From NCBI GenBank assembly GCA_020722315.1, contig DYLD01000001.1, positions 13,296 through 77,295 on the forward strand: 64,000 nucleotides of DNA, written 5' to 3'. Below the pieces are notes generated by a model. That model saw only the letters and a program-made list of their open reading frames with translations, was not told where the DNA came from and searched no databases. Origin of the DNA: Syntrophus aciditrophicus. GTDB lineage: Bacteria; Desulfobacterota; Syntrophia; Syntrophales; UBA5619. The translations under genes and the position numbers were made by a program. Below are positions 6,045 to 30,464 of this stretch, one piece after another (the stretch's first letter is position 1; every line of letters starts with the position of its first letter).

Positions 6045-6210
6045 CTCAACCTGGACAGGCTTTCCGGCTTCGGGCTTATGCCTACTTGCCCGCCTTCCCG
6101 CCATCTTTTATCGACGGCAGTGGCTTATATTCGGGCGTTCGTTCCCTTCACGGCTGCGGGGCAGCGGGAGCTTTTCACTCCTCTTTCCTGACTTCCGGTT
6201 GATGACAGAT
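6045..6210 (-). promoter_or_regulatory. Cobalamin riboswitch (proximal copy of a tandem pair)
   Basis: The minus strand reads ...GGAGTGAAAAGCTCCCGCTGCCCCGCAGCCGTGAAGGGAACG...GCCACTGCC...GGCGGGAAGGCGG...GAAGCCGGAAAGCCTGTCC (B12 box). It is followed by AGGAGG and the cbiK(P) start region. Confidence 0.85.
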
Positions 6211-6363
6211 TCATTGTTTCCGAGACTGTGAACATTAAGCTTTGCTTTATTGCCTTCTTTGCGGACGCGATTTCAGCATGCTCCGTCAGATAGGACTTTC
6301 TTCACATCGCCTCCTTTGTTTATGTGCGAATAGCGAATGCAACAACGCCTGCCGTTGAGCGTC

Positions 6364-6400
6364 AAAAAAAATCCTCGAACCCAATGTATCAGGTCCGAGG
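6364..6400 (-). terminator. Intrinsic terminator, the likely expression platform of the distal riboswitch
   Basis: The minus strand reads CCUCGGACC-UGAUACAUU-GGUUCGAGG followed by AUUUUUUUU. Confidence 0.7.
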
Positions 6401-6469
6401 ATGCCGTTTTTCACCCGTAACAAGTTTATCGATCGGCTTCCGTCCACGAAGCCCAATCCCATATAACAT

Positions 6470-6650
6470 ATCAAGAAGGTCTTCCGGCTTCCGGATCAGC
6501 TTACTTACCGCGCCTTCCCATTCCTTCCAAACGGAACAGTGACGTCACTGCGGCTTTCATCCCCGGTTACGGCGGCGGGCCCGCGACGGATTCGCACCGT
6601 CTTCCCTTTTACGGCCATAAGGCCTCTCGATTGTTGTGGATCATTACCAC
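6470..6650 (-). promoter_or_regulatory. Cobalamin riboswitch (distal copy of a tandem pair)
   Basis: The minus strand reads GTAAAAGGGAAGACGGTGCGAATCCGTCGCGGGCCCGCCGCCGTAACCGGGGA...GTCACTG...ATGGGAAGGCGCGG...GGAAGCCGGAAGACC. It starts about 16 nt after the cbiH stop. Confidence 0.85.
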
Positions 6651-14847: not shown

Positions 14848-15108
14848 TCATCCGAAAAGCCGTAGTTCACGGCCGGTCAATTCCAATCGCGAACCATGGA
14901 CGACCTCGGCCATCTTGCAGACGATCAACCCCATTCCCCTTGCTATAAGCTTCCACCAGGCATCCATGAAGTATTGGTCGTACTCGTCGGACAAGACAAC
15001 TTCGATTTGATCGGCCTTAATATCCAGCCCTTTGGCCGCCTTTTCCGGATCAAAATCCTTCCGCATCCGTTCACTGCCGGCAACATAGACGATTACCCCG
15101 TTTTTCAT
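14848..15108 (-). CDS. Hypothetical small protein (86 aa)
   Basis: An ORF packed tightly between exbD and cbiA on the operon strand, with a GGGG-rich RBS upstream. I recognise no family. Confidence 0.35.
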   Translation of the reverse strand: MKNGVIVYVAGSERMRKDFDPEKAAKGLDIKADQIEVVLSDEYDQYFMDAWWKLIARGMGLIVCKMAEVVHGSRLELTGRELRLFG

Positions 15109-15184: not shown

Positions 15185-15568
15185 TTACTTCTTTATCTCT
15201 GTCTGGACGGCGACTTTTTTGAACCCCCCGTGATTGATAATATCAAGGACATCGATAAAAACCTGGAGCCTTATATCGGAGTCCGCGCGGATAATCAGCG
15301 GCGTTTCCCGATCCAACGGACGTATGGTATTGTTCAACTCATCCAGTCCGACCTCCCGGGAATTGAAATAGACTTTGCCGTCCCGGTCAATCGAAATTAT
15401 ATCGTTTTTGACGACTTCGGCCTTGCTTGGGGACGCCTTCGGGAGGGAGACGGAGATCATACCGGTAGCAATAAACGTCGAGGTCGTCAAAACGATCGTC
15501 AGCAGCACCAGCATGACATCGACAAGCGGAATCACGTTGATGTAATTAAACTCCTTCTCGTCGTTCAT
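15185..15568 (-). CDS. exbD: Biopolymer transport protein ExbD/TolR
   Basis: Contains INVIPLVDVMLVLLTIVL, one TM segment and a periplasmic domain. Confidence 0.8.
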   Translation of the reverse strand: MNDEKEFNYINVIPLVDVMLVLLTIVLTTSTFIATGMISVSLPKASPSKAEVVKNDIISIDRDGKVYFNSREVGLDELNNTIRPLDRETPLIIRADSDIRLQVFIDVLDIINHGGFKKVAVQTEIKK

Positions 15569-15983
15569 GTTTCAGCTCCCACTCTAAAATAATGCCCTTC
15601 GCGCGCCGCAAAAGGAGGTTGTAAAAAACGACGGAGGGAATCGCTACGAGAAGTCCCACCGCCGTCGCCTTCAGCGCCATTGAAAGACCGATCATGATTT
15701 TCCCCGTGTCGGCGAAGCCCTCCAGCCCCATCGTGTAAAACGTCGCCATGATCCCCAGCACCGTCCCGAGCAGCCCGACATAGGGCGCGTTGCTTGCGAT
15801 CGTGGCGATGAGATGGAGCCTTTTGGTAAGCTCGAATTCCAGCGCGCGTTTATCGTGAAATTTCCCGCCGTTGATGTTGCGGTAGGACAAAAACCTTTCG
15901 ATCGCGATCGCCAGCGCGGCGACGCTCATCAAAACGAGCAATCCCATGATCCCGTAATCCACCAATGCCGATAAATATGCCAT
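15546..15983 (-). CDS. exbB: MotA/TolQ/ExbB proton channel (short form)
   Basis: Contains NAPYVGLLGTVLGIM...LKATAVGLLVAIPSVVFYN. Confidence 0.8.
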   Translation of the reverse strand: MAYLSALVDYGIMGLLVLMSVAALAIAIERFLSYRNINGGKFHDKRALEFELTKRLHLIATIASNAPYVGLLGTVLGIMATFYTMGLEGFADTGKIMIGLSMALKATAVGLLVAIPSVVFYNLLLRRAKGIILEWELKHERREGV

Positions 15984-16039
15984 CTCTCAACGTCCTCAAA
16001 TATCCATTACAGGGATGATCCCTTTTTTATTGGGTGATT

Positions 16040-17017
16040 CTATTCCAGTTTGAAACGAATCGGTAAAACGGCGCGGGAGGCGATATTGCGTCCTTGTATT
16101 CGCGCCGGGGCAAAGGTCGATTTTCTGACCGCCTCAATCGCCGCCTCCGTCAAACCGTAACCGGGCGATTCATTAACGTCTATTTTCTGAACCCTGCCCG
16201 TGCTGTCGATAAGAAGGGTCAAGACGACCCTTCCCTCCTTGCCACGTCTTCTTGCCAACGCCGGATAGACGGGAATCTCCCTGTGAATAAACCTCGGGGC
16301 GTTCAGCTCGCCGAACCTGGTCTCCAGAGGACTCCCGGCGCCCCCACCCCCTCCGGAACCCGTACCTGTTGACGCATAGTTTCCGGAACCGTCTCCAAAA
16401 GCGCCTTCCAACGTGCTTCCCGCCGCATCGGAAACGCCGACGGAATGACCTCCTTCACCGTGCCGGGTGCCGGCGGCGGCCGTACCTATGGCAGGAACGG
16501 CATCGGCGTCGATGAACTCATCACCCTTCGGCTTCCCTATAGCGGGCGGCAGCTGCGTTTCCGTGGTCTTTACCGATGCGTATTTTCCCTCAACCGGGTG
16601 CATAACCCTTTCTTCGGTCGTTATTTGGTCGATCGGGGCCAAACGAGCGGCCGCGGGACGTTCGACGGTTGTCGGGCGGTTCGCCTGCCTGCGCGCTCCG
16701 GGAGGGTTGTGTTTTTTCATCGGCTTGGAAATCAAAGAGGGCTTCTCGGCTTTCACTTTCATCCCCGAGTCAGGATGGATCGGGCGATCCTGCAAGAAGG
16801 AGGCTCCTTCGTCAAAGCTGATATGAAAGGTTTTGAGCTCGATCATCTTTGCGCCGGGCTGGATCATCAGCAGAAAGATAAAGGCGATATGGACCAAAAG
16901 CGAGCAGACAATGCCGATATGACCCTCACGGATATGTGCTATGCCGGAACCCCTCCGTGTTGATGAAACATCAAGGTACGCCGAATAGCTCTTTTCTTCA
17001 GCACTCATACTTCGCAA
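16040..17017 (-). CDS. tonB: Energy transducer TonB
   Basis: It has an N-terminal TM segment, a low-complexity linker, and a C-terminal domain reading YPALARRRGKEGRVVLTLLIDSTGRV...APARIQGRNI. Confidence 0.8.
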   Translation of the reverse strand: MRSMSAEEKSYSAYLDVSSTRRGSGIAHIREGHIGIVCSLLVHIAFIFLLMIQPGAKMIELKTFHISFDEGASFLQDRPIHPDSGMKVKAEKPSLISKPMKKHNPPGARRQANRPTTVERPAAARLAPIDQITTEERVMHPVEGKYASVKTTETQLPPAIGKPKGDEFIDADAVPAIGTAAAGTRHGEGGHSVGVSDAAGSTLEGAFGDGSGNYASTGTGSGGGGGAGSPLETRFGELNAPRFIHREIPVYPALARRRGKEGRVVLTLLIDSTGRVQKIDVNESPGYGLTEAAIEAVRKSTFAPARIQGRNIASRAVLPIRFKLE

Positions 17018-17169
17018 ACGCTCCAGATTCAGTAACTTTTATTGACACGAGAAAATCCAAACAAAAAATCCCCGGCCATATCAAACGTATGACCGGGGAT
17101 TAAACGTTTTTATAATCCGGATTAACCCAACACCTTCGGCCTTCTTTACCGTCGAAGATAAAGCCGAGC

Positions 17170-17365
17170 TGATTCTGGCAGGTCTCCTGGCTTGCAGTTC
17201 ATTCCTCCTCCCTCGCCTTCCCATCGTAACGACAGTGGCCGGCATCTCGGAACCCGGTACTTGCAGTATCGGCATGAGCTTTCCGAGTCCGTAGAGGGAA
17301 TCGTCGCTGCTTACAGTGGCGGGTCCGCTCCCGATTCTTACGGGATTCCCTATTATACCGCCCGA
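17170..17365 (-). promoter_or_regulatory. Cobalamin riboswitch upstream of tonB-exbBD-cbi
   Basis: The minus strand reads AATAGGGAATCCCGTAAGAATCGGGAGCGGACCCGCCACTGTAAGC...GCCACTGTCG...ATGGGAAGGCG...GCAAGCCAGGAGACCTGCC (canonical B12 box). Confidence 0.9.
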
Positions 17366-17598
17366 AGGGGCGGCACCAGAACAGCATGACTTGTAAAAGA
17401 ACCTGTATTTTTCCCAACAACCGTTTTGTGAAATCGGTAACATGGCTTTCCTTTTTCTGTCAAGTGATATTTGCATCGTTACTTTCCCGCTCTTTTCAAG
17501 ATGCGGGGATACTGAAGCCACCACCGGAACTGATTGGAAAAGATTCGTCTCAGCCGTCAATCCGTCCTTCCGGCAAAAAACGAGCTCCTCCGTCAGGA

Positions 17599-17799
17599 TT
17601 ACTTGTCGGACAATCTCATCAGTATCTCAACAGAATCGTGCAATTTTCCGGCCGCTTCCAAAAGCACCGAAGCCGTTTTCGCGCCGCCCTTTTGATTCTG
17701 AATCTTTTTTGCCCACTCCTCGTACTCGGCGATATGCTGCCGTTCATGTTCGATCCAGTGTTCAATCAGATGTTTTTTTACCTTTGTTAAGTCGTCCAT
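17599..17799 (-). CDS. Hypothetical small His-rich helical protein (66 aa)
   Basis: Start trimmed to MDDLTKVKKHLIEHWIEHERQHIAEYEEW... after the RBS GGGAGG. There is no signal peptide. Confidence 0.4.
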   Translation of the reverse strand: MDDLTKVKKHLIEHWIEHERQHIAEYEEWAKKIQNQKGGAKTASVLLEAAGKLHDSVEILMRLSDK

Positions 17800-17900
17800 G
17801 AATCCTCCCGTTGCGTTACTTTTTTTCGCTTTTTTGTGTATGCCGATGCAAAACCACGCACGGAATACAGCGAAATTTAAGTCAAAGTGGTGTCTTGGCT

Positions 17901-18953
17901 TCATTTGTTCCAGACGGCGGCGTAGGGATCGCCCTTGACAAGCATCCCCGCCAGTGCCGCCTTCCCGGAAAAGCGTTTCAGCGGGACAATAAAGGGAAGA
18001 TTCTTTTCGATGGGCCGCCCGGCCAGAGCCGAACCCATTTTTGCGCGGGAGATAAGTGGAAGAAGACCCCCTTTCGCGTTAAATTCCTCTCTGCTGACCT
18101 TGCTTGCGGCAAAGGCCGCATTGAAGTCGAAACCCAGCGCGATCCCGTCGCAGACGTCGCTTTTTTTGTTCACGCGCATTGCCACAAGCGTCGGGGAGAT
18201 GCCGTTTACCGCATATTTCTCCATATCCCTGTCGCTGATCGCATCCGCGTACCCGCCCCCCTTGCCGGTCGTCGTATCGAACATGACCTGAAGGGCGTCG
18301 GCCCAGCACTTCGCCGGGGCGCTGACAAACACGTAGCGATCCCCTTCGCGCAGCGGCAGTTCCCTCATGATGAACATCCCCGACAGGTAACCGATATTGA
18401 CCCCCGGGCAGACGTGGTTGTGAAACGACGCCGCCATGAGCAGCGTCCAGGGGGCATCCACGGACCACGCCCGGCTGATCGTCACGATGGAAAAGAGGTT
18501 CTGCCCGATCGGCCCTGCGGAGGCCTCCTTCCAAGCCGCGGGTTTCAGAATGACCTCCGGGGCCGCGTTGATCCGCTGCGTCTTGATGCCGCCCTTTGTC
18601 CAGCCGATATACATCAGCGCCCCCGTATCCTTCCGGTAGAGGGAGGCCCAGAGCGGTGCGTAAAATGGGGAGTGAACGGAAAGCAGCGACCGCTTCCCGA
18701 GCGTGCAGCCCGTCGCCGCGCTTGCGGCATCCCAAAAGGCCTCGGTCGATTGGTTTTCCATCTGTCCATACCCGGCATTGGTGAGCATGAAAAGCCTGCC
18801 GTCGCCGACGGGAAGGCCGATTTCGTCAAGGGCGGCTTTCAGCGCCGCCTCCATTTTCCCCATATCCGCGGGCGCCGCTGCTGCCGATAGCGGAATCAGG
18901 AAGGAAAGCGCCGCCGCAAGTACAAACAATAAAAGAGGTTTCAGTTTTTTCAT
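17901..18953 (-). CDS. Exported FmdE-family protein
   Basis: The signal peptide is MKKLKPLLLFVLAAALSFLIPLSAAAAP. The motif SFHNHVCPGVNIGY matches the FmdE-domain H-x-C-P-G signature as I recall it. Confidence 0.55.
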   Translation of the reverse strand: MKKLKPLLLFVLAAALSFLIPLSAAAAPADMGKMEAALKAALDEIGLPVGDGRLFMLTNAGYGQMENQSTEAFWDAASAATGCTLGKRSLLSVHSPFYAPLWASLYRKDTGALMYIGWTKGGIKTQRINAAPEVILKPAAWKEASAGPIGQNLFSIVTISRAWSVDAPWTLLMAASFHNHVCPGVNIGYLSGMFIMRELPLREGDRYVFVSAPAKCWADALQVMFDTTTGKGGGYADAISDRDMEKYAVNGISPTLVAMRVNKKSDVCDGIALGFDFNAAFAASKVSREEFNAKGGLLPLISRAKMGSALAGRPIEKNLPFIVPLKRFSGKAALAGMLVKGDPYAAVWNK

Positions 18954-19066
18954 CGTTAAATGTCCTTTCTGGCATATCAGCCTGAAAATGCATGCATTTA
19001 TTATCCTGAAGCGTGGGGAGGGCGGCGGATACGGGCCAGTTATCTCCCCCGCGCTTTCACGAACGG

Positions 19067-21283
19067 TTAAAACTCCACGGATGCAGACAGTATCGCCGAA
19101 AACGGGGCGCCCGCCATATAGCTTGTTGAGCCCGCGCGTGTATCATCCGAGGAATTGATGCGTGAGATGTATCTTCGGTCGAGGATGTTGTTCAGCTCGG
19201 CTGCGATCTTGAGATTTTCGGCGACGGGAATTTTCTTGAACGTGTAACTGAGTTTAAGGTTTAGCGTTGCATAGGATGAAACCTCTTCCTTATGTTCCAC
19301 GTCCGCATAGCGCGAGCCGATGAAATTCACCGACGGAATTGCCTCCAGGGCGCCCCATTTGTAGATCAAGCCTGTTTTTACGATCATTCTGGGTGTATCC
19401 ACGACCTGGTTATCCTTTGCCTTCAGCGTGGCGCCGTTATAGGTTAAATCGTCGTCGTACTCCAAAATGGTGTACGTCGGATTGATGAAAACAGTAACGC
19501 TGGGATGAAGATGGAAGTTTGCCTCCACATCAAGACCATAGCCGGTGGCCTTGCCGATGTTCTGCTGGTAGTTGAGATTGACCCGCGAATCGTAGATCGT
19601 CGTGAGCAGGTTTTTGTGCCTGCCGTAAAAGACCGTCGGCGCGAAATCGAACCGTGCGGTTTTCAGACGCATCCCCAGATCGATATTGTCCGACTCCTCA
19701 ATGTCGTACCCTTTGAAGAGGTCATTGAGCATGATCCCTTTTGCGGTAAATGCCGCTTTATTCTGGCTGTAGAGGTTCACCAGCGGCAGGTACGCATAGG
19801 GACGGATGAAGTTTTTTCCGTAGCTTGTGTAAAATTGCAGATTTTCAGAATGCGTCCAGGAAAGTCCCGCGCTTGGCAGGACAATGTCGTACGTTCTCGC
19901 CTCGCGGTCAAGGGCCGCATCCCGTATCAGGCTGTAAGCAGGCGCAGGCCCGGATCTGTACCCTTCGCTTGCCGAGTCCTCAAAACGGAAATACTTGACG
20001 CCCGCCTGCCAGTCTATCTTCTTGAGCGAGCCGGCAATCTTCAGATAGGGGCTGTGGATATACGTGTCGCCGGTCGTGGCCGTCACCCCGTAGCCCTGCC
20101 AGGCAAGCCCCACCGGGTTGTATTTTTGCGTGTAAATCTGCATGTCCGAGTTTTCAAAATGGTAACCTGCGGTGATATTCACCGGTTTGGCGCCCCAGAA
20201 GCCCTCGACGATGACGCCCTTGCGGTCGATATCGCGGGTTCGTTTCTGGATAATACCACCCCCGGAGCTGCTCCCCTGATAAATCTCTGTCTCTTCATCG
20301 CAAAAATAGGGTTTCAGCGTGAATCGGAGTTGTTCCGAGGGAGTGACCGTGATGAAGGCGATCAGGTCCTTGTTCTCGTATTCGCCCCTGTTGTAGTCGT
20401 AGTAATTGATATCGGTCGCCTTAACGCCGGTGAGGGTTTCATTGTAATCGAGTTTGTAATTGGCGTCGAGGTTCTGGCTCTCGGCGTAGGTAAGCGATCG
20501 GTAGAGATTCTGCTTGAGGTCGTTGGAGTTGAGCCAGAGCTTCACATCCACGATGCTGCCCAGCGGCTGCTCCAGGGCGAGGTTAAAGTTGTTCCGCGGA
20601 CCTGTTTTCCCCGGCCCCTTCCATTTGTCGGCTTCGGTATAGGAATAGGAACCGGAAAACGCCGTGCCCGATTTCGTGAGGCTGCCGGAATCAAAACGGA
20701 GGTAGGTGCGGTGGTAGTTGTCCGTGCCGAACCCCTGTCGGAACGTGAAACCCAGTTCTTTTTTGGGCCAGTTTGGTTTCAGATCGATCGCCCCTCCGCG
20801 CGAGCCGATTCCCGCGCCAAAATCGGCAGGCGCCGCCCCTTTATACACCGATAGGGATTGAAAATTCTCCATATCGTAGATGTATTCGCGCGGCCCGATC
20901 GGGTTGCCGCCGTAGTTCGGAACCCCGCTTACACCCAGGGCACCAAGCATGCCGCGAACCCCCCGCACGCGGATGGTTCTCTGTTCCGCCCCTAATCCAT
21001 AGGGATCGGCGCTCTCCACACTGACGCCCGGCAAAATGCCGATCGCCTCATAGACGCTCGTGCTTGCCGGCGTTCCCTGGACTTCGATGCCTTTCGCTGT
21101 GATCTCCGTCCCGGTGTAAACGGTCTCTCCGGTTTCACGGGTCGGCGCAATGATCTTCTCCCCCGTGACAACGATCTCCTCGAACTGTTTGATAGCGCGT
21201 GCATCTTCGGCTGCGCCGGCGCCCCAGGGGATGCATACGCTCACAACCGCCACGACCCCCAAAAACCATTTACCCTTTTTCAT
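19067..21283 (-). CDS. TonB-dependent outer-membrane receptor
   Basis: It has a signal peptide, the plug motif EEIVVTGEKIIAPTRETGETVYTG, and a C-terminal ...SASVEF end. Confidence 0.85.
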   Translation of the reverse strand: MKKGKWFLGVVAVVSVCIPWGAGAAEDARAIKQFEEIVVTGEKIIAPTRETGETVYTGTEITAKGIEVQGTPASTSVYEAIGILPGVSVESADPYGLGAEQRTIRVRGVRGMLGALGVSGVPNYGGNPIGPREYIYDMENFQSLSVYKGAAPADFGAGIGSRGGAIDLKPNWPKKELGFTFRQGFGTDNYHRTYLRFDSGSLTKSGTAFSGSYSYTEADKWKGPGKTGPRNNFNLALEQPLGSIVDVKLWLNSNDLKQNLYRSLTYAESQNLDANYKLDYNETLTGVKATDINYYDYNRGEYENKDLIAFITVTPSEQLRFTLKPYFCDEETEIYQGSSSGGGIIQKRTRDIDRKGVIVEGFWGAKPVNITAGYHFENSDMQIYTQKYNPVGLAWQGYGVTATTGDTYIHSPYLKIAGSLKKIDWQAGVKYFRFEDSASEGYRSGPAPAYSLIRDAALDREARTYDIVLPSAGLSWTHSENLQFYTSYGKNFIRPYAYLPLVNLYSQNKAAFTAKGIMLNDLFKGYDIEESDNIDLGMRLKTARFDFAPTVFYGRHKNLLTTIYDSRVNLNYQQNIGKATGYGLDVEANFHLHPSVTVFINPTYTILEYDDDLTYNGATLKAKDNQVVDTPRMIVKTGLIYKWGALEAIPSVNFIGSRYADVEHKEEVSSYATLNLKLSYTFKKIPVAENLKIAAELNNILDRRYISRINSSDDTRAGSTSYMAGAPFSAILSASVEF

Positions 21284-21404
21284 TGCTTCTCCTCCTTTCC
21301 TCTTTATTGAATTAAATGCGGAAATTTCCTGAAAGGAAGGAGTTCCATGGCATGGCGGCTGTGCTCGACGGAATAACTTTTGTTTTCTCGAGAACTTACA
21401 TGGA

Positions 21405-21595
21405 GAGAACTTTGCAAAACGCCACCTTCGCGCTGATCGGATCTTTTTCGACCCCGCGGCGCCTCACATCGGCTTCAAAGGTTAAACGCTCTGGGATAGT
21501 TCGCGTTCCTGACGCCTTTGCAGCCTTGCTGCGACGGCGGGGTACCCCGAAAAATCAATAAATGCGCGCTTCAGGCGGCATTTTTCAAAGCTCTC
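21405..21595. repeat. ~190-bp palindromic intergenic repeat, copy B
   Basis: Same orientation as copy A. The shared core is ATCTTTTTCGACCCCGC...TAAACGCTCT...GTTCGCGTTC...CTTGCTGCGACGGCGGGGTACCCCGAAAAATC...GCGCTTCAGGC.GCATTTTTCAAAG. Confidence 0.85.
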
Positions 21596-21617
21596 ATGGA
21601 TAAAAACACAATTCCGC

Positions 21618-21669
21618 AAAAAAAACGCCACGAAAGCGCCCCCCTCCAGGGAATTCACGCCTTCGTGGC
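21618..21669 (-). terminator. Intrinsic terminator-like hairpin inside the leader of the receptor/FmdE operon
   Basis: The minus strand reads GCCACGAAGGCG-loop-GGCGCTTTCGTGGC followed by GTTTTTTTT. Confidence 0.6.
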
Positions 21670-21980
21670 ATTCTTGATAGGTCTTTTTCTGCTTATTATC
21701 GCAGATGTTTTTCTGTAACCAGCTTCTTCACCGGCTTCAATGCCGGTTTTCCACCACCGACTTCTCGGATGATTTGCGGACTGCTTATCACGACCATCTG
21801 CCGAAGTCAAGCCTTTTTCTGGGAAATTTTTCCGTTTCAGGCAACAGGTTTTAAGCAAAATTTAACCGAACCTGAAGATTTCTTTTCCGGCGACGGGTTC
21901 ATTAAAACTTAACCGAACCTAAATAATGTTGCAACAAACGGCTGCTATCATCGCCCCCAAACACGGTCAAGGAGGCTGTT

Positions 21981-22793
21981 ATGAAGACAATCAAAGCTGT
22001 GAAAGTCAAACTCGGTTATGGAAACAAGGTCGTCTTGACGGATATCGATCTGGAGGTGTCCGGAGGCGAATTTATCAGCATCATCGGCCCTTCCGGTGTG
22101 GGGAAAACGACGCTGCTGATGGCGATCAACGGCAACGTAAAGATCTTCGATGGAGAAATGTCCGTTCTCAACCACAATTTGCGAACCATCGGAAACACCG
22201 ATTTGAAATCGATACGCGCCCGGATCGGGGTGATTTTCCAGGGGTATCACCTCGTTAAGCGCCTGAACGTGCTCGACAACGTCGCCGGGGGAATGCTCCG
22301 GAAAATGAATTCCCTGCAGGCCGCCATTAAGTACTACCGGCACGACCAGTACGAGTTGATCTACGGGTACATGCGTGCGGTCAGGCTTGAAAACGAGGCG
22401 CTGCAGCGCTGCGATAGGCTTTCCGGCGGGCAGATGCAGCGTGTGGCCATCGCCCGTGCGCTTGCCCAGGAACCTGAGATCATCCTAGCGGATGAACCGA
22501 TTTCTTCCCTTGATCCGATAAGCGCGACGGGCGTGATGGATACACTGGCCAGGATCAATAAGGAATACGGCCTGACCGTGATCGCCAATCTTCACCAGCT
22601 TGAATACGCCCGGCGCTATTCCCGGCGGATCATCGGGATGAACAAAGGCCGGATCATCTATGACGGCAAGCCCGAGGCGCTCGACGACGCAACCGTCGCC
22701 CGGATTTATCAGGGAGAACGCGCCGGCGAGGTCGAACCATCGCTCGAATTCCCGCTGCCTGCCGCTGCACGGGTAGCTGTCTACAATGCGTAA
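21981..22793 (+). CDS. phnC: Phosphonate ABC transporter ATP-binding protein
   Basis: Walker A GPSGVGKTT, signature LSGGQMQRVAIARAL, and operon context. Confidence 0.85.
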   Translation: MKTIKAVKVKLGYGNKVVLTDIDLEVSGGEFISIIGPSGVGKTTLLMAINGNVKIFDGEMSVLNHNLRTIGNTDLKSIRARIGVIFQGYHLVKRLNVLDNVAGGMLRKMNSLQAAIKYYRHDQYELIYGYMRAVRLENEALQRCDRLSGGQMQRVAIARALAQEPEIILADEPISSLDPISATGVMDTLARINKEYGLTVIANLHQLEYARRYSRRIIGMNKGRIIYDGKPEALDDATVARIYQGERAGEVEPSLEFPLPAAARVAVYNA

Positions 22794-22895
22794 CCGTCGA
22801 AATGAGACGAAACAACACACCGTGAACAAGGAACTACCGTTTTTTTGAAGCAACACATCTCGCTGAACCATCATAAAATTAATAAGGAGGTTACT

Positions 22896-23780
22896 ATGAA
22901 ACAGATGTTAAGAACGGCAATTACGGTCTTGGTAATGACAGGGATCATTCTTACAAAAACGGCATTTGCAGCCGGTAACCCTTCCGACTGGCCCGCTAAA
23001 CTTACGTTCGGCATCATCCCGACGGATTCCTCGTCTAACATAACCGAAAGGACCAAAAATCTTGTCGAATACCTGGAAAAAAGCATCGGCCTACCGATTA
23101 CCGTCAAGGTAACGACGGATTACGCCGGCGTGATCGCCGGTATGCAGTTCAAACATGTTGATTTTGCGTATTTCGGCCCGAAATCGTACGTCGAGGCGGC
23201 AAAGAGAGCCAATGCGGAGGCTTTTGCCATTGAGGTCGGCGAAGACGGAACGACCGGCTACTATGGACTGATCATTACAAAGAAGGGTTCCGGACTCAAC
23301 AGCATCGCGGATATCAAAGGCAAAACATGGGCCTTCACCGACCCGAACTCGACGAGCGGGACGCTTGTCCCGTCCGTCTATTTCTACAAGGAGCTCCATG
23401 TGGCTCCCGAAAAATATTTCTCGAAGGTTATCTATTCGGGAAGTCATGCGGCTTCGATGATCGCCGTACGATCCGGCAGGGTTGATGCGGCATCCACCAA
23501 TGACCTCGATATGGCCCGGGGGGAAGGAAAGACATGGAACTCAGAACAGGATTTCAACATCATCTGGAAGTCTAAACTGATCCCCGGTTCGCCGATGGCA
23601 TACAGGAAAGACCTGCCGCCATCTCTGAAAAAGAGGATCAAAGACGCCTTTCTCGCCTACAGGGATCCTGCCGGCCTCGAAATGCTGAAAATCAAGGGAT
23701 ATGCGGACGGAAATGATTCCGTCTATGATCCCATCAGGGATCTGATTGAGGTCAAGGCCAAAATGGTCGCAAAGAAGTAA
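22896..23780 (+). CDS. phnD: Phosphonate ABC transporter substrate-binding protein
   Basis: Start trimmed to the ATG after the AAGGAGG RBS. It has a signal peptide and the PhnD-like stretch FGIIPTDSS...YFGPKSYVEA...FTDPNSTSG. Confidence 0.85.
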   Translation: MKQMLRTAITVLVMTGIILTKTAFAAGNPSDWPAKLTFGIIPTDSSSNITERTKNLVEYLEKSIGLPITVKVTTDYAGVIAGMQFKHVDFAYFGPKSYVEAAKRANAEAFAIEVGEDGTTGYYGLIITKKGSGLNSIADIKGKTWAFTDPNSTSGTLVPSVYFYKELHVAPEKYFSKVIYSGSHAASMIAVRSGRVDAASTNDLDMARGEGKTWNSEQDFNIIWKSKLIPGSPMAYRKDLPPSLKKRIKDAFLAYRDPAGLEMLKIKGYADGNDSVYDPIRDLIEVKAKMVAKK

Positions 23781-23807
23781 TAGTTTTAAAAGAGGGCAAA
23801 TTCCCCC

Positions 23808-24689
23808 GTGCCGGGCCATGGATGTTGTGCCATGCAGCTTGAAGAGATCAAAAAGAGAACCAATCCGCTCAATCGTTATAACCTGGCGGTTCTGCTAATG
23901 ATGTTTGTACTTGCAACGTGGAGCTGGAAGTCCACCGAGATGAGCGTCGGTGTCCTCGCAAAGGGCTGGCTTAATATGATTGTCTATCTGACGGGAAATC
24001 CGGAGATCGAAAACAGCGGGTTTTTCCCTCCGGCTTCTAGCTCGACCGGGATTGTGAAGTATGTCAAGCTGATGGTTGAAACGGTGCAGATGGCCTTTCT
24101 GGCGCTGATTCTGTCGGTGGCGATCTCTTTCCCGCTCGCGTTTTTTGCCTCGCGCAACACGCTGGAGATCATCTTTCCCGGGCAGCGGCTTTTTGACAGG
24201 GTGATCCGTAAGGTCTCCTATATCACAACCCGGTTCGTGGCGAACCTGGCCCGCTCGATCAACGAACTGGTCTGGTCGCTGATGTTCGTCTCGGCGGTGG
24301 GACTGGGACCGATGCCCGGGATACTCGCGCTCGGCGTGCACACGGGCGGGGTTTTGATCAAGCTGTTTTCCGAGGGAATAGAGAATATCCAGAGCGAGCC
24401 GGTAACCGCGCTGACCGCGACGGGGGCCGGGCCGCTGAAGGTGATACGCTACGCGGTGATCCCGCAGATATCGCCGTTTTTTGTCTCGATGCTCCTCTAC
24501 CGCTTCGAATCGGATGTCCGCTCGGCGACGATTCTCGGTTTCACCGGCGCGGGCGGCATCGGGGTCTATCTGTACGACAAGCTCCGGTCTTATGAAAACA
24601 GGGATGTGACGACAATGCTGATTATCATTATCATCACAGTCGCCATTGTGGATCGGATGAGCGCCTGGATACGGAAAAAATATACCTAA
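23808..24689 (+). CDS. phnE: Phosphonate ABC transporter permease
   Basis: Contains INELVWSLMFVSAVGLGPMPGILAL...YRFESDVRSATILGFTGAGGIG. The start may instead be the ATG at 23832. Confidence 0.8.
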   Translation: MPGHGCCAMQLEEIKKRTNPLNRYNLAVLLMMFVLATWSWKSTEMSVGVLAKGWLNMIVYLTGNPEIENSGFFPPASSSTGIVKYVKLMVETVQMAFLALILSVAISFPLAFFASRNTLEIIFPGQRLFDRVIRKVSYITTRFVANLARSINELVWSLMFVSAVGLGPMPGILALGVHTGGVLIKLFSEGIENIQSEPVTALTATGAGPLKVIRYAVIPQISPFFVSMLLYRFESDVRSATILGFTGAGGIGVYLYDKLRSYENRDVTTMLIIIIITVAIVDRMSAWIRKKYT

Positions 24690-24790
24690 AAAAACGCTCG
24701 CCTCTCCCCCTTAAAGCCTTCTTTCCGGGAACACCCTCCACCCGGGAAGAAGGCGGGGAGTCGGCATATGAAAGAGATGGGAGGATCTGT

Positions 24791-25225
24791 ATGAACATGG
24801 AAGATCAAGAAGCAGCCGGATGGGATCACGTTTTATCGCGGACGGATCTCAAAACGGACCGCCGCATTCTGCTTGTGGTATCGGAAGGTTTGACTGTTCT
24901 GCGGGAGCCGCGTCCGGCGCTGGTGATGATGGCGGTAACGGACAGCTCCGGCGAAAGATTCAATCTCGGAGAGGTTTTGGTCACCGAGGTGGAGGTTTCC
25001 TGCAACGGCGAGAGGGGCTATGGAATCGCCGTAGGGGATTCCGCCGTCAAGGCGATGGCGATGGCGATTGTTGCCGCGGTGATGAAAGGGGAAAACACGG
25101 CCGTAAAGAGGCGACTGCTCAAACTTTTGGAAAGGATAAAACGGAGCAGCCGGCAGGCTCTGGATGTGGAAAATGCCCTTTATGCTGCGACAAAGGTTGA
25201 TTTTCAAATGATGGTGAAAAAATAG
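24791..25225 (+). CDS. phnG: C-P lyase core complex subunit PhnG
   Basis: Contains GERFNLGEVLVTE and a C-terminal ATKVDFQMMV, compared with E. coli PhnG ASRVDFFTMV. Confidence 0.8.
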   Translation: MNMEDQEAAGWDHVLSRTDLKTDRRILLVVSEGLTVLREPRPALVMMAVTDSSGERFNLGEVLVTEVEVSCNGERGYGIAVGDSAVKAMAMAIVAAVMKGENTAVKRRLLKLLERIKRSSRQALDVENALYAATKVDFQMMVKK

Positions 25226-25807
25226 ATGCTTTTTAAAACCGGTTCAGAAGATCAGAGCGTATTCAGGACTATCCTGCAGGCGGTCAGCCATCCCGGCCGA
25301 ATTTTTGTGCTTCCGGAAGCGTCCGATAGGCGAAAGAAGTGGGCTTCGTTGCTGAAACTTCTTACCGCGGTTATGGACGGCGAGATAACGCATCATATCG
25401 TAGACGGCGCATTGTGCCCGGACTTTTCCGATCTTCTCTACGCCGCGACAAAGAGCCCCGCCGTCGCTCTCGAATCTGCGGATTTCGTTATTGTCCCCGG
25501 CGGAGATACAAAAGGGTCCATCACGTCGGCGAAGCGGGGGACGCCGGAGTATCCCGACATGGCGGCAACAATTGTCTACGGGGTTCGTTTTATTGCCGCG
25601 GGCGAGGCTCAGGATGACGGGATTTTTTTACAGGGCCCCGGCATACATGGACGGATTGCTCTGCCGGTGATGGACGGCCTCAACAGCAATGATCTGCGGC
25701 TTCTTTTCGAGATCAACAATGATTTTCCGCTCGGCGTGGACACGCTCTTCGTAGATGAAGCGGGAAGGGTTGTCGCGATTCCGCGCAGCACCCGGATGAC
25801 CGACTGA
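25226..25807 (+). CDS. phnH: C-P lyase core complex subunit PhnH
   Basis: Contains FRTILQAVSHPGRIF, plus matching position and size. Confidence 0.75.
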   Translation: MLFKTGSEDQSVFRTILQAVSHPGRIFVLPEASDRRKKWASLLKLLTAVMDGEITHHIVDGALCPDFSDLLYAATKSPAVALESADFVIVPGGDTKGSITSAKRGTPEYPDMAATIVYGVRFIAAGEAQDDGIFLQGPGIHGRIALPVMDGLNSNDLRLLFEINNDFPLGVDTLFVDEAGRVVAIPRSTRMTD

Positions 25808-25823
25808 ATAAAGAAGAAGCTTT

Positions 25824-26957
25824 ATGGGATATGTTGCGGTAAAGGGTGGCGAACAGGCGATCGAAAACGCCTGCAACCTTTTTGCGTACCAGCGCATAAA
25901 GGGCGGCTCGCGTCCGCTTGCGGTCAAACAGATAGAAGAGCAACTCTATTTGCTTATTGATCGCGTGATGGGTGAAGGGTCGCTCTACGCACCCGAACTC
26001 GCTGCGCTTGCCGTCAAACAGGCCGCGGGGGATACGCTGGAGGCATCGTTCATGCTTCGGGCCTACCGTACGACGTTGCCGCGGATCGCCTCTACGTTGC
26101 CCGGGTCAACCGCGCGGATGAGGATATTTCGGAGGATTTCCGCATCGTTCAAGGATGTTCCGGGAGGTCAGGTGCTCGGTCCGACATCCGACTACACGCT
26201 CCGGCTTCTCAACTTCGATTTGTTTGATGAAACGAAGGCCTCGGCACAGCTTTTCCGCCGGTTCGTCGAACACAACCTGCGGAGCCATGAAAGACTTCCC
26301 GACACCTTTCCCAAGGTCATCGAAATCCTAAGGACGGAAGGATTGATCGTCAATCCGAAATCCGCCGGCTATAGCGACGAAAGTGACGGAGAACCTTTTG
26401 ACATCACCAGGGAGTCCCTTGTTTTTCCCGCTGCCCGCTCCGCCCGCTTACAGGCGATGGCGAGAGGAGAGACCGGCGGTCTTTTGCTTCTGGCATATTC
26501 CAGCATGCGCGGCTACGGTGATGTCCACCCGATTGTCGGCGAGCTGCGTGTGGGCTATCTTCCCGTTGTTGTTCCGGATCCTTATACAAAAGCGCCCCGG
26601 GTAGCCGGAGAGGTCAAGGTGACGGAGGCCGAGATCATTGCCCGTTACGACAGCGGATCCGGGAAACCTCTCTTTACGGTAGGTTACGGTCTGTGCTTCG
26701 GGCAGAACGAGATCAAGGCGATTTCGATGGCGATTCTCGATAGGGCGATGGAGGCCGCGGAAAACAACTCCCCCGCAAATGATCAGGAGTTTGTTCTTTC
26801 TCATATCGATGGGATCGAGTCGATGGGGTTCTGCAATCACTGGAAGCTTCCCCATTATGTTGATTTTCAGTCGGATCTTGACCGACTCAGAAAGGCGCAG
26901 GCATACCATGCCGATCGTGGAAAAGAGCAAAAAACAGACACGACAAATTCTCTATAA
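25824..26957 (+). CDS. phnI: C-P lyase core complex subunit PhnI
   Basis: The N-terminus is MGYVAVKGGEQAIENA. Size is 377 aa. Confidence 0.85.
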   Translation: MGYVAVKGGEQAIENACNLFAYQRIKGGSRPLAVKQIEEQLYLLIDRVMGEGSLYAPELAALAVKQAAGDTLEASFMLRAYRTTLPRIASTLPGSTARMRIFRRISASFKDVPGGQVLGPTSDYTLRLLNFDLFDETKASAQLFRRFVEHNLRSHERLPDTFPKVIEILRTEGLIVNPKSAGYSDESDGEPFDITRESLVFPAARSARLQAMARGETGGLLLLAYSSMRGYGDVHPIVGELRVGYLPVVVPDPYTKAPRVAGEVKVTEAEIIARYDSGSGKPLFTVGYGLCFGQNEIKAISMAILDRAMEAAENNSPANDQEFVLSHIDGIESMGFCNHWKLPHYVDFQSDLDRLRKAQAYHADRGKEQKTDTTNSL

Positions 26958-27774
26958 TTTTGCATTTCTCGACGATGTCGCAAAAAGGGAAATCCGGCGC
27001 AAGATATTAAAGGCCGTGGCTGTTCCGGGCTATCAGGTGCCTTTCGGCTCCCGTGAAATGCCGATTGCCCGCGGCTGGGGTACCGGCGGACTGCAGATTA
27101 CCCTTTCACTGATAGAGCCGTCCGACACGCTCAAGGTGATTGATCAGGGATGCGATTACAGCGTCAATGCGGTCAATATCAAGAAATTCGTGCAGGCCGT
27201 CACCGGCGTCAGAATAACAACCGATACGACCGAGGCGACACTGATTCAGACGAGGCACCGGATCCCCGAAGAACCGATGACCGAGGATCAGATCCTAGTG
27301 CTGCAGGTGCCGTATCCGGAGGCGCTGCGGGAGGTGGAGCCCTCCGAGCAGAAAACCCGTGCGATGCATGCGGAAGGCGACTACGGCCGCATGTGGCTTT
27401 TTCTCTACGAAGACATCATCCATTACGGCGAGGTACGGCTGAGCTACCGGTATCCGGTGCTGGTCAACAACAAATACATCATGGATCCCAGCCCTATCCC
27501 GCGCTGGGACGTGCCGAAGCTCAACATGGCGCGGACGCTTTTTCTTTTCGGGGCCGGGCGTGAGAAAAGGATCTACGCGGTTCCCCCGTACACCAGCGTG
27601 GAGCCTCTGCAATTCGAGGACCATCCGTTCCGGGTCGAGTCGTTCGCCGGCAAGAGGTGCGAACGATGCGGAGCGGAGGATACGTATCTTGATGAGATCA
27701 TCGCGGAAGACGGGGTAACGAGGCACTATTACTGTTCCGACACCTCGTTCTGCGACAAGAGGAGACGAACATGA
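26908..27774 (+). CDS. phnJ: Alpha-D-ribose 1-methylphosphonate 5-phosphate C-P lyase PhnJ
   Basis: Start trimmed to MPIVEK.... Contains YNFAFLDD..REIRRKILKAVAVPGYQVPFGSREMPIARGWGTGG and a C-terminal Cys cluster (CERCG...YCSDTSFC). It overlaps the phnI end by about 50 nt. Confidence 0.85.
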   Translation: MPIVEKSKKQTRQILYNFAFLDDVAKREIRRKILKAVAVPGYQVPFGSREMPIARGWGTGGLQITLSLIEPSDTLKVIDQGCDYSVNAVNIKKFVQAVTGVRITTDTTEATLIQTRHRIPEEPMTEDQILVLQVPYPEALREVEPSEQKTRAMHAEGDYGRMWLFLYEDIIHYGEVRLSYRYPVLVNNKYIMDPSPIPRWDVPKLNMARTLFLFGAGREKRIYAVPPYTSVEPLQFEDHPFRVESFAGKRCERCGAEDTYLDEIIAEDGVTRHYYCSDTSFCDKRRRT

Positions 27775-28610
27775 AGCCTCTGCTGAAGGTCTCCCGTCTC
27801 TCCAAGCGCTATGGGAACGGATGCCTCTTTTGCGCAAACGAAAACGGCGCCGGATTGGTCGGGAACCAGTGCCCGCACTGCAAGTCCGTATTTGCATGCC
27901 GCGATGTCTCGTTCGACCTTTTTCCGGACGAGGTGCTCGGCATCGTCGGGGAAAGCGGGTCGGGGAAAAGCACACTGGTCAGGCTTTTGCATTTTGAGGA
28001 AGAGGCCACCGGGGGAGAGGTCTTCCTGAATGCGTCCACAGGCGAGGAAAAGTCGCAAAACGTGCTTGCGTTGGGCCCTTTCGCAAAACGGCAGCTCAGA
28101 AACCGTAAGTTCGGCATCGTCTATCAGAACCCCCAGATGGGGCTCAGGATGGATGTCAGCGCGGGCGGCAACGTCGCGGAAAAACTACTCGCGGCGGGCT
28201 GGCGCAACGTCGGCCTGATACGGGAAAGGGCGGGAGAACTCCTAAAAAAGACCGAGATTCCGCTCAGCCGGATGGACGAAGCGCCCCGCAATTTCAGCGG
28301 AGGCATGCAGCAGCGCGTCCAGATCGCCAAGGCCCTGTCGAATAAACCGCGGATTCTGCTGCTGGACGAAGTAACGACCGGCCTTGATTTATCTGTTCAG
28401 GCGCGGGTGCTCGATCTCATCAAGAATCTCCAGCGGGAACTGAAACTCTCCGCCCTTGTGGTTTCCCACGACCTCGGTGTCATCCGTCTTTTATGTCACA
28501 GAACCATCGTGATGCGCTACGGGAGGGTCGTCGAGTCCGGCCTGACGGACCAGATCCTCGAGGATCCGCAGCATCCATACACGCAGCTGCTTGTCAGCTC
28601 GCGATTGTGA
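27771..28610 (+). CDS. phnK: C-P lyase system ATP-binding protein PhnK (with a Cys4 insertion)
   Basis: Contains [28 protein letters not shown] and a C-terminal [13 protein letters not shown], compared with E. coli PhnK. Confidence 0.85.
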
Positions 28611-28621
28611 GTCGGAAATTT

Positions 28622-29311
28622 ATGCTGAAGGCGACAAATCTATCAAAAAGTTTCGTATTGCATGCCCTCGATAAAAAACAGATCGACGCATTCCGGAAGG
28701 TCTCTTTCGAACTGGCGCCGGCGAGGTTTCTCGGCATCCGGGGTATCAGCGGCTCCGGAAAGAGTTCGATACTGAAATGCATTTACCGAACCTACCTTCC
28801 GACGGAAGGAACGATCAACTACCATTCCCGACGGGGTGTGTTGAATCTGGCGGATCTTCCCGAACAGCAAATCCTTGCGCTGCGCCGCGAGGAAATAGGC
28901 TTTGTTTCCCAGTTCCTGCACGTTCTGCCACGGGTTTCGGCGCTTGATCTCGTCGCGGAGCCGCTTTGGTCGCAGGGAGTCCCGCTGCCGCAGGCAAAGA
29001 AACGGGCAAAAGAACTGCTCGGCTATCTGAATATTCCGCCTGCTCTTTATGATGCCTATCCCGCGAACTTCAGCGGCGGGGAGCAGCAGCGGATCAACAT
29101 CGCCCGGGCGGTGATCTGGAACCCCCGACTGTTGCTGCTGGACGAACCCACCGCGTCGCTGGACGAAGGGTCCGTCAAACGGGTGATTTCGCTTCTGAGG
29201 GAACTGAAGAATGCCGGGACGGCGATGATCGGGATTTTCCACGATACAGCCGTCATGGATTCCATTGCGGATGACATATATCATATTAAACCGGTGAGCC
29301 ATGAAACCTGA
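28622..29311 (+). CDS. phnL: C-P lyase system ATP-binding protein PhnL
   Basis: Start trimmed to [11 protein letters not shown]. Contains GISGSGKSS and [14 protein letters not shown]. Confidence 0.8.
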
Positions 29312-30464
29312 ACGTTTTTTTGTAGATAACGGTACTGTCGTTCTTCCTGAACGGGTAATGGAGAACGCCGTTGTTGTCATTGAAAAGGGGCGGATCGCCG
29401 CCGTCGAAAACGGCAAAAAACGATTCAACGGCGCGCGCCGGATCGATGCGTCCGGCTGCCTTGTGCTGCCGGGGCTGATTGATTTGCACAGCGACGCGCT
29501 GGAAAGGGAACTCGAACCGAGGCCGAACGCCTTTTTCCCGACGGAGATGGTCCTGCGTGAACTCGACAAAAAGCTTGCCGCCGCGGGCATTACGACGATC
29601 TACCACGCGATCTCATTTGCCGAAGGGGAAATAGGAACCCGCTCAAACGAGATGGCGAAGCAGATTGTCGAAACGGTAAAAAAGCTGACGGACAAGTTCC
29701 GGGTTCGAACAAGGGTTCATGCCCGCTACGAGCTTACCGACATCGAGGCACTGCCCATCGTCCGGGATCTGATCGGCGAACACAGAATTGATATGCTCTC
29801 GTTCATGGATCACACCCCCGGGCAGGGTCAGTTCCGCGAGGCCGCCTCGTTCCACCGGTACTACAGCGTAGTCTACAGCAAAACGGACATCGAGATAGCC
29901 GAGATGATAGAAAAAAAACAGGCGGCGCATGCCTCGACGGTGGAACGTCTGCTCTATTTGCTTAATCTATGCCGATCCTCCGAAATCCCGCTGGCCTCGC
30001 ACGACGACGACTCGAGGGAGCGCCTCGCGTGGCTCAACGAACAGGGCAGGTTCATTTCGGAATTTCCGGTAAATATCGAAGCGGCCCAAGCGGCGCGGGA
30101 TTTCGGGTTTTCGGTCAGTATGGGTGCACCGAATGCGCTCAGGGGAACCTCCGTAACCGGCAATCTGAGCGCCCGGGAGGCGATCGAGCGGAAACTCTGC
30201 AACATCCTCTGCTCGGACTATGTGCCGTCGGCGCTGTTGCAGGGGGCATTGAAACTCGTTGATACAGGTATGCTGACGATGCCGGAGGCGATCAAACTCG
30301 TTTCGCTGAATCCGGCCCGTGCGGTAGGCATCGACCATGAAACCGGCTCGCTGGAGCCTGGTAAGGCTGCCGATTTTCTGCTGTTGAAAAAAACAAACGG
30401 CTACGGAGACGTGACAAAAACCTTCGTCACCGGAAAGGAAATCTATTCGACATGCTGGAGATAG
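29301..30464 (+). CDS. phnM: Alpha-D-ribose 1-methylphosphonate 5-triphosphate diphosphatase PhnM
   Basis: An amidohydrolase-fold protein. Contains [15 protein letters not shown] and ...ASHDDD.... Confidence 0.85.

Follow-up and report, generated by a model that had tools for sequence, protein, structure and literature searches.

A TonB-dependent receptor operon with an exported FmdE-like protein and a conserved leader RNA: a candidate pathway for nickel or cobalt uptake

What is an exported protein of the FmdE family doing beside an outer-membrane active transporter? The question is raised by a locus in a 64,000-nucleotide stretch of a Syntrophus aciditrophicus assembly (GenBank GCA_020722315.1, contig DYLD01000001.1, positions 13,296 to 77,295; hereafter the window, in which position 1 is the first letter), where genes for a TonB-dependent receptor, an FmdE-like protein and a histidine-rich protein of only 66 amino acids (aa) stand together upstream of a cobalamin riboswitch and tonB-exbB-exbD. 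We give a probability of about 0.5 to the reading that this locus serves to take up a scarce transition metal by a TonB-dependent route, the metal most likely being nickel and/or cobalt and carried as the ion or as a small chelate. We judge the system to be a genuine and new form of TonB-dependent metal uptake, with a periplasmic component of FmdE fold and a cytoplasmic component of the family DUF8180. Sulfide leaves nickel and cobalt almost insoluble in the habitats of sulfate reducers; these organisms and their relatives rely strongly on [NiFe] hydrogenases, CO dehydrogenase and corrinoid enzymes, and how they acquire the two metals across two membranes is poorly known.

The region was read from the list of open reading frames (ORFs) and from Pfam scans. 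Both confirmed three genes on the minus strand that a sequence-only reading of the window had described as coding for a 738-aa receptor, a 350-aa FmdE protein and a 66-aa helical protein rich in His and Glu, the helical character of the last being borne out by a structural model.

15185–21811, minus strand: whole region read (ORF list and Pfam scans)
19067–21283, minus strand: TonB-dependent outer-membrane receptor, 738 aa (Pfam Plug and TonB_dep_Rec_b-barrel)
17901–18953, minus strand: putatively exported, two-lobed FmdE-family protein, 350 aa (Pfam FmdE, 2GLZ profile match, AlphaFold model)
17599–17799, minus strand: putative DUF8180 protein, 66 aa, without signal peptide (conservation, model, Shine-Dalgarno sequence)

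On that strand the gene order is receptor, FmdE-like protein, DUF8180 protein, cobalamin riboswitch and tonB-exbB-exbD.

The assignment of the 350-aa protein to FmdE withstood a profile check, Pfam FmdE (PF02663) being matched in two stretches with 71.2 bits (cut-off 22.9; E 1.1e-19). A profile of 49 relatives matched the FmdE structure 2GLZ of the Protein Data Bank (PDB) with E 2.9e-8, aligning FH-x-H-x-CPG and C..DALQ and placing the motif FHNHVCPGVNIGY on the metal-binding loop of 2GLZ. In 2GLZ and 2GVI a metal is bound tetrahedrally by His15, His17, Cys19 and Cys55 (2GLZ numbering): zinc in the case of 2GVI, a zinc/nickel mixture in that of 2GLZ (PMC2954224). These ligands correspond to H178, H180, C182 and C216 of the window protein; in the 49 relatives H178 and C216 are invariant, and conservation is 90% or more at H180 and C182. 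Other residues around the site are D219, T228 and K231, likewise invariant, and Q222, likewise conserved to at least 90%. The AlphaFold model (predicted local distance difference test, pLDDT, 92.1) points to the same fold, the sole PDB matches of the model with E <0.001 in Foldseek being chains of 2GLZ (probability 1.00). The FmdE core forms the C-terminal lobe, preceded by an N-terminal lobe (~30–165) that has no metal motif, repeats the order of secondary-structure elements and carries a look-alike TGCTLGKRS segment. Because the hhalign comparison of the two lobes reached only E 0.078, a weak similarity, the idea of a fused pseudo-dimer is offered as a suggestion only.

By inspection, the N terminus (residues ~1–27, MKKLKPLLLFVLAAALSFLIPLSAAAA/P) resembles a Sec signal peptide: its start is basic, its core hydrophobic and its end rich in Ala, and it has neither a twin arginine nor a lipobox. 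As 48 of the 49 family members share this signal-peptide-like pattern, export is probably a family trait. The conserved His2Cys2 site and the transporter genes found in the neighbourhoods of relatives (below) fit a role in hand-over, and periplasmic metal binding with hand-over is the best-supported general interpretation of the protein.

A periplasmic enzyme, which would free the metal from an imported metallophore or modify the cargo through the metal-adjacent Cys, would draw on the same residues. The invariant D219, T228 and K231 and the conserved Q222 at the site are in its favour, as is a ligand in 2GVI whose distance of 1.8 Å to the equivalent Cys would fit a thioester (PMC2954224), and genes for flavin reductase, methyltransferase and TrmO-like proteins recur nearby, FmdE-TrmO fusions having been reported in archaea (PMC11237513). 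However, FmdE proteins are not known to catalyse any reaction, the neighbouring enzymes are without export signals and would thus act in another compartment, and metallophore biosynthesis genes were not seen in the window or in the related loci. We regard an enzymatic role as rather unlikely.

The receptor has both plug and barrel domains (Plug PF07715, 33.7 bits; barrel PF00593, 112.7 bits), and its sequence includes a predicted signal peptide, a TonB-box-like plug start (EEIVVTGEK) and a C-terminal Phe. It reaches no NCBIfam curated subfamily cut-off, scoring 104.8 bits against the siderophore model TIGR01783 (cut-off 223.5) and 24.5 bits against the BtuB equivalog TIGR01779 (cut-off 599.7), and its closest solved relatives, FyuA, FhuA and CntO, are weak matches restricted to the C-terminal part of the barrel. 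That these best matches, weak as they are, are receptors for siderophores and metallophores would suit zinc or iron uptake, with a receptor of siderophore or zincophore type and an FmdE-like protein binding zinc or iron in the periplasm, and so would the zinc in the 2GLZ and 2GVI sites (PMC2954224). We nevertheless consider zinc or iron improbable as the substrate, and more so than an enzymatic role of the FmdE-like protein: no Fur or Zur box was found upstream in four loci at the thresholds used, the neighbouring genes concern B12/cobalt or are Nik-like, not iron or zinc genes, and relatives of the DUF8180 protein adjoin CooT and CooC-like genes.

This third protein is encoded by a 66-aa ORF with a strong Shine-Dalgarno sequence (GGAGG, 5 nt 5′ of the ATG) and aligns end to end with 65–68-aa proteins encoded 3′ of the FmdE gene in relatives. 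A longer, 101-aa reading that starts from an ATGA overlap with the FmdE stop codon was dropped, since relatives keep only the 65–68-aa form and the Shine-Dalgarno sequence of that form is strong. Relatives at 63–98% identity bear the precomputed Pfam label DUF8180 (PF26551) and share the invariant core HWIEH..H..Y..WA; a Pfam scan gave no match either for the 66-aa protein or for the relatives bearing that label, so that the Pfam copy scanned may lack this model. The protein is rich in His and Glu and is modelled as a helical hairpin (pLDDT 94.5; helices 3–33 and 39–61), in which His 10, 14, 18 and 22 (i, i+4, i+8, i+12) would line one helix face (HLIEHWIEHERQH); some DUF8180 members have His-rich C-terminal tails. 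Distant members (L053 5506–6842 and L059 1271–4707; numbers with L are our designations for related loci) lie either between the genes for CooT and a CooC-like P-loop ATPase or in an arrangement of CooC-like ATPase and DUF3786, then DUF8180, then a TonB-dependent receptor.

Is the linkage of receptor and FmdE gene peculiar to this genome? An exhaustive search of 1.84 billion cluster representatives returned 218 proteins at E ≤0.001 and 42 at E ≤1e-30, and 185,579 species genomes yielded 42 loci, nearly all in Desulfobacterota, the taxa represented being Desulfobacteraceae, Desulfatiglandales, Desulfarculia, Desulfomonilaceae and Desulfovibrionaceae. A metagenome scan for further members of the close clade added three distant loci only. 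In the close clade (65–75% identity), the order receptor-FmdE-DUF8180-TonB-ExbB-ExbD is kept in L045, L047 and L048, with an orthologue of the window receptor 5′ of the FmdE gene in each; L058 and L060 agree with this order over the length that their contigs cover, L058 running from FmdE to ExbD and ending before any receptor gene. The DUF8180 gene lies 3′ of the FmdE gene in L045, L047, L048 and L058 and 5′ of tonB-exbBD in L060, and tonB-exbB-exbD follows it in all five. When the window receptor, TonB, ExbB, ExbD and the small protein were compared with 44 loci by tblastn, orthologues of the receptor and of the DUF8180 protein were confined to this clade.

A second instance comes from Desulfofustis glycolicus DSM 9705 (L020; FmdE at 47% identity), where the FmdE cluster is headed by a different receptor (21% identity, over the plug only), followed by a short zinc-ribbon FmdE gene, a methyltransferase gene, the long exported FmdE gene, more methyltransferase genes and a Nik-like ATP-binding cassette (ABC) importer; at the 3′ end stand a third FmdE gene and then a B12 riboswitch with another receptor. 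Since this cluster has a different receptor at its head, the comparison of sequences indicates that the link of receptor and FmdE gene arose at least twice. The linkage thus extends beyond the window genome to four to five further loci of the clade and, independently, to D. glycolicus. Among more distant relatives it is a minority context, as shown by neighbour counts within 10 kb in 43 more distant loci.

Nik-like ABC genes: 12 of 43 loci
Short cytoplasmic FmdE: 14 of 43 loci
570-aa outer-membrane-like protein of no known family (c12): 4 of 43 loci
BtuF-type binding protein: 3 of 43 loci
TonB-dependent receptor: 3 of 43 loci

In the Nik-like importers, a nickel model was the top NCBIfam match for the L047 binding protein and for the NikB-like permeases of L002 and L047, and a nickel or nickel/cobalt model was the second match for the L002 binding protein and the NikC-like permeases of L002 and L047, all below cut-off.

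Two further neighbours deserve mention. The c12 protein (570–580 aa; L026 12659–14395, L032 11479–13191, L036 and L037) is encoded 3′ of the exported FmdE gene; one of the four loci bears the label Pseudomonadota, and the others are labelled Desulfomonilaceae or delta proteobacterium. With a signal peptide, a C-terminal Phe and no match in Pfam or in a PDB sequence search, the protein may be an unrecognised outer-membrane channel. Genes for S-adenosylmethionine-dependent methyltransferases and TrmO_N-like proteins recur beside both long and short FmdE genes (L020 9031–9822, 11223–12095 and 12602–13360; L012 11132–11680; five other loci), the TrmO_N-like neighbours matching the FmdE-TrmO fusions of archaea (PMC11237513).

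These neighbourhoods also bear on a role of the protein in handling molybdenum or tungsten, an analogy drawn from the fmdE gene of formylmethanofuran dehydrogenase operons, the setting with which the sequence-only reading had associated the family. That association is outdated: most PF02663 genes adjoin genes for metal-ion transporters (Axelrod et al. 2010, PMC2954224), and only 13 of 208 lie in fmd operons (PMC2954224), which leaves the family name as the sole argument for these metals. Neither the window nor ~50 related loci contain fmd/fwd genes, so that the protein does not qualify as a formylmethanofuran dehydrogenase subunit E in the strict sense, nor do they contain mod, tup or molybdenum cofactor (Moco) genes, and a ModE box and a Moco riboswitch were not found. 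We therefore disfavour this analogy and regard it as very improbable. The earlier proposal of a periplasmic hand-over of metal or cofactor keeps its general part, through the His2Cys2 site and the transporter neighbours; it loses molybdenum and tungsten, and the evidence favours nickel and cobalt. The earlier impression that an exported FmdE protein beside an outer-membrane receptor was undescribed also agrees with the literature searched, in which FmdE was linked neither to TonB-dependent receptors nor to a periplasmic location, cobalamin uptake or riboswitches.

How is the pathway energised and regulated? The genes downstream of the DUF8180 gene supply part of the answer.

17436–17463, minus strand: conserved internal promoter-like site, CTTGACAG-N15-TGTTACC, 5′ of the cobalamin riboswitch
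17160–17395, minus strand: cobalamin riboswitch aptamer (Rfam RF00174, 106.3 bits against a gathering score of 31.5, full model)
17067–17101, minus strand: intrinsic terminator of the cobalamin riboswitch (14-pair hairpin and T-run)
16040–17017, minus strand: tonB, start uncertain (Pfam TonB_C)
15546–15983, minus strand: exbB (Pfam MotA_ExbB)
15185–15568, minus strand: exbD (Pfam ExbD)

The RF00174 element has the same position in L045, L048, L058 and L060 and precedes tonB in five of six loci; in L047 it is absent and the six genes abut. The block CTTGACAG-N15-TGTTA(G/C)C is invariant in the window and in these four loci, that is, in all five riboswitch-bearing loci (alignment A12). Because this second conserved promoter-like block precedes the B12 riboswitch, the locus is, judged by its sequence, composed of two units, a leader-controlled receptor-FmdE-DUF8180 unit and a B12-controlled tonB-exbB-exbD unit, the latter possibly extending into an 86-aa ORF (orf86) and cbiA. 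The sequence-only reading had placed the operon upstream of a riboswitch-tonB-exbBD unit, which is correct as to position, but the separate conserved promoters and the leader RNA of the first unit had gone unnoted. A terminator check found none 3′ of the window DUF8180 gene, and read-through transcription from the receptor unit into the tonB unit is possible. The 86-aa ORF (14848–15108, minus strand), which lies between exbD and cbiA, has no family match; a homologue at 38% identity is found in L003 (9022–9279), ~0.7 kb from the FmdE gene of that locus.

With a B12 riboswitch that would shut off the energiser genes, the pathway would be tied to corrinoid (cobalt) status, and the setting is in keeping with this. 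A cobalamin island with cbi genes and five riboswitches surrounds the locus, and the neighbours of the locus in the clade are cbiA or other cbi genes, CbiZ, or a B12-regulated module of receptor, DUF2162, MotA and DUF2149. One such module is present in the window itself (723–6645, minus strand), where tandem cobalamin riboswitches (6037–6239 and 6457–6645) are followed by a CbiK cobaltochelatase with a probable signal peptide from an internal start (MKEFLKKAWIIVLSAMSAWFFFTGDVFA), a 784-aa TonB-dependent receptor, DUF2162, a MotA/ExbB-like protein and DUF2149; in L045 the part of this module from receptor to DUF2149 lies 3′ of exbD, behind a riboswitch. The window also has a separate B12 uptake system (38685–45024, plus strand) with two riboswitches: the genes behind the first encode a FecCD-type permease and an ATPase, those behind the second a 619-aa BtuB-like receptor, then a diphthamide-synthase-like protein and a BtuF-type binding protein.

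The cobalamin surroundings, the B12 riboswitch over a dedicated tonB-exbBD in five of six loci and the CbiZ gene 3′ of exbD in L048 all argue for corrinoid salvage, in which incomplete corrinoids or cobamides would enter through the receptor, to be bound or remodelled in the periplasm by the exported FmdE-like protein. Against this, the receptor gene itself has another leader, without a B12 riboswitch, and its product falls far short of the BtuB model (24.5 versus 599.7 bits). The riboswitch-controlled BtuB-like receptor with btuC, btuD and btuF already gives the window a B12 route, importers in relatives are Nik-like in 12 loci as opposed to BtuCDF-type in 3, four Nik-like FmdE loci have no B12 riboswitch, and NikR-type boxes occur in two lineages. 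Corrinoid salvage is thus not a likely account, and in our estimate is on a par with a periplasmic enzyme. Uptake of a metal, nickel and/or cobalt, remains our preferred reading.

The receptor unit is preceded by a different kind of control region, with one copy in the 64-kb window.

21618–21811 (about), minus strand: promoter-like site and conserved 5′ leader (alignments A4/A5, nhmmer, covariance model R1)
21811–21806, minus strand: promoter-like element CTTGAC
21790–21784, minus strand: promoter-like element TGATAAG
21768–21757, minus strand: hairpin HP1 (CCGA-GAAG-TCGG)
21669–21627, minus strand: leader terminator hairpin with 5′ arm GCCACGAAGGC, U-run to 21618

Aligned, the upstream regions of four clade receptor genes share the promoter-like site, a structured leader and a conserved terminator hairpin (GCCACGAAGGC ... 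GCCTTCGTGGC and a U-run), which in L048 shows a compensatory change (C to U, G to A). A hidden Markov model (nhmmer) and then the covariance model R1 located the leader on the coding strand in ~27 loci (about 27 species; L003 9751–9856, L015 9803–9907, L002 4183–4280, L007 2525–2623 and 19034–19132, and ~20 more loci). It is always just 5′ of an operon with an exported FmdE gene, independent of the first gene, which may be FmdE itself or encode a Nik-like binding protein, a flavin reductase, a BtuF-type protein or a receptor; in L007 the second copy lies ~0.5 kb 5′ of a receptor fragment. That the same leader precedes FmdE operons whatever their first gene is a shared regulation that supports the uptake reading. 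Divergent from the receptor leader, the window has what appears from ORF translations to be a phosphonate ABC transporter and carbon–phosphorus lyase (phn) cluster (21981–31399, plus strand).

Across the family, the promoter reads TTGACA-N17-TAtAAg, HP1 is a 4–7-bp stem of free sequence closed by an A(C/U/A/G)GAA loop, and an A/U-rich linker of 35–110 nt leads to the terminator. A near-invariant GCCAYGAAGGC forms the 5′ arm of this terminator and can alternatively fold into a mini-hairpin, GCC-AYGAA-GGC, that mirrors HP1. Covariation was scored on 14 species, in an alignment itself fitted to the model. Pairing holds in 93.8% of its cells, and double changes are seen at 7 of the 16 pairs; the covariation score of this fitted alignment is 0.375, compared with 0.175 for shuffles (0 of 500 reach the observed value) and ≤0.16 for slid controls, and 4 of the 5 HP1 pairs co-vary. 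No Rfam family matched the leader at gathering score in 21 related loci, and searches at E up to 10 gave noise only, mini-ykkC included. A switch in which HP1 would pair with the terminator's 3′ arm is unsupported: by inspection, the loop variants do not co-vary with the terminator. We propose the leader as a candidate new riboswitch or antiterminator target on the strength of its sequence, a result separate from the uptake system and arguably the more novel of the two. Because this conserved RNA ends in a terminator, it suggests factor- or ligand-dependent antitermination of the receptor unit: the terminator would form by default, and a factor recognising both AYGAA loops (a protein, or a loop pair bridged by a ligand) would favour the mini-hairpin and hence read-through.

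Which metal is carried? The delta-proteobacterial NikR box is GTGTTAC-N13/14-GTAACAC (PMC545781), and palindromes of this type were found at the following sites.

L020 6169–6195, 18504–18530 and 5942–5968
L057 7979–8006
L026 12611–12637

In D. glycolicus (L020) a box with one mismatch lies 31 nt 5′ of the receptor gene and another box precedes the third FmdE gene; the palindrome 37 nt 5′ of the lone exported FmdE gene in L057 is reversed and perfect, perfect sites being expected by chance at ~0.015 per 1 Mb, and the palindrome in L026 lies 5′ of the gene for the outer-membrane-like c12 protein. At up to four mismatches there is no NikR box in the window, L045 or L047, and L048 has matches with four mismatches only. 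All three loci with boxes are among those that lack the leader, which hints that leader control and NikR control replace each other. The NikR-type boxes, the CooT and CooC-like neighbours of DUF8180 and the B12/cbi surroundings together point to nickel and/or cobalt. Because the receptor gene of the clade has no Fur, Zur, ModE or NikR box before it, the metal is a matter of inference, and nickel and/or cobalt is what we infer.

Several observations weigh against this reading. Seven NikR-like matches in 1 Mb are not above chance, only their positions and the perfect site being notable, and 5′ of the receptor gene neither a convincing NikR, Fur, Zur or ModE box (window clade, four loci) nor a known riboswitch class (window, E up to 1 or 10) was found. 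The Nik-family ABC matches all fall under curated cut-offs (for example NikA, 116 versus 393 bits), ~15 of the 43 distant loci are without any scored recurrent neighbour family, and the 64-kb window contains no inner-membrane nickel/cobalt importer and no NikABCDE-type genes. The 2GLZ site held mostly zinc, its nickel may stem from the purification resin, and the proximity of the 2GVI ligand to the Cys makes an enzymatic role instead of a carrier conceivable (PMC2954224).

If the reading of nickel and/or cobalt uptake is right, the 738-aa receptor would carry the substrate over the outer membrane, energised by the adjacent TonB-ExbB-ExbD. The Sec-exported FmdE-like protein would be its periplasmic partner, capturing the metal or processing a metal chelate at the single His2Cys2 site and passing the metal to an inner-membrane importer, the genes for which (Nik-like ABC) are adjacent in relatives and not here. 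In the cytoplasm, the His-rich hairpin of DUF8180 would buffer or chaperone the incoming metal. The leader RNA with its terminator would control the genes for receptor, FmdE-like protein and DUF8180. A broader proposal is decidedly more tentative: exported FmdE-like proteins could constitute a new class of periplasmic nickel/cobalt-binding protein that fits TonB-linked, Nik-like and BtuF-type importers alike, with the dual AYGAA-loop leader, as a riboswitch of a new class or a target of protein-dependent antitermination, sensing metal status and standing in for NikR in those lineages that carry the leader. Were the pathway real, FmdE, a family with solved structures but no experimentally assigned function, would gain a testable role and DUF8180 a working hypothesis, and a new cis-regulatory RNA, common to ~27 species, would be open to a direct search for its ligand or binding factor.

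How does the system compare with what is known? With the FmdE proteins of known structure (2GLZ, 2GVI, 3D00; PMC2954224) the window protein shares the alpha+beta core, the HxHxC...C ligands, the C..DA.Q....T.GK motif and the tendency to adjoin genes for metal-ion transporters. The known members are cytoplasmic, 150–200 aa long, dimeric and often equipped with a C-terminal zinc ribbon, whereas the window protein has a predicted signal peptide and an extra N-terminal lobe and lacks the zinc ribbon. CbiK(P) of Desulfovibrio is a periplasmic cobaltochelatase, of which we take window 4957–6021 to be a likely example, and it offers a parallel in being an exported copy of a normally cytoplasmic metal handler beside a TonB-dependent receptor, in a B12-regulated setting and in sulfate reducers; it differs in fold and family, and the CbiK module lies directly behind B12 riboswitches, which the FmdE operon does not. 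The leader RNA recalls ANTAR-target leaders, which have two hairpins with AxxGxx hexaloops, and the guanidine-II (mini-ykkC) riboswitch with its ACGR tetraloops, in that two small hairpins have the same loop, the second of them sharing nucleotides with the terminator's 5′ arm; its loops, in contrast, are AYGAA pentaloops, it controls other genes, and no conserved ANTAR gene is nearby. A functional parallel would be TonB-dependent nickel uptake, as by FrpB4 and FecA3 of Helicobacter, which is energised by TonB-ExbBD and controlled by NikR, or by CntO, which works with the CntA-F metallophore system. A TonB-ExbB-ExbD-energised receptor and a periplasmic binding step are common to all, and relatives of the window locus add an importer of the Nik/Opp ABC family and, in two lineages, NikR-type boxes. 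The receptor, however, is not demonstrably related to FrpB4, FecA3 or CntO, the last being a weak match over the final 150 residues only; the periplasmic partner would be of FmdE fold here and is of NikA or CeuE type there, and control would be exerted by a leader RNA in place of NikR.

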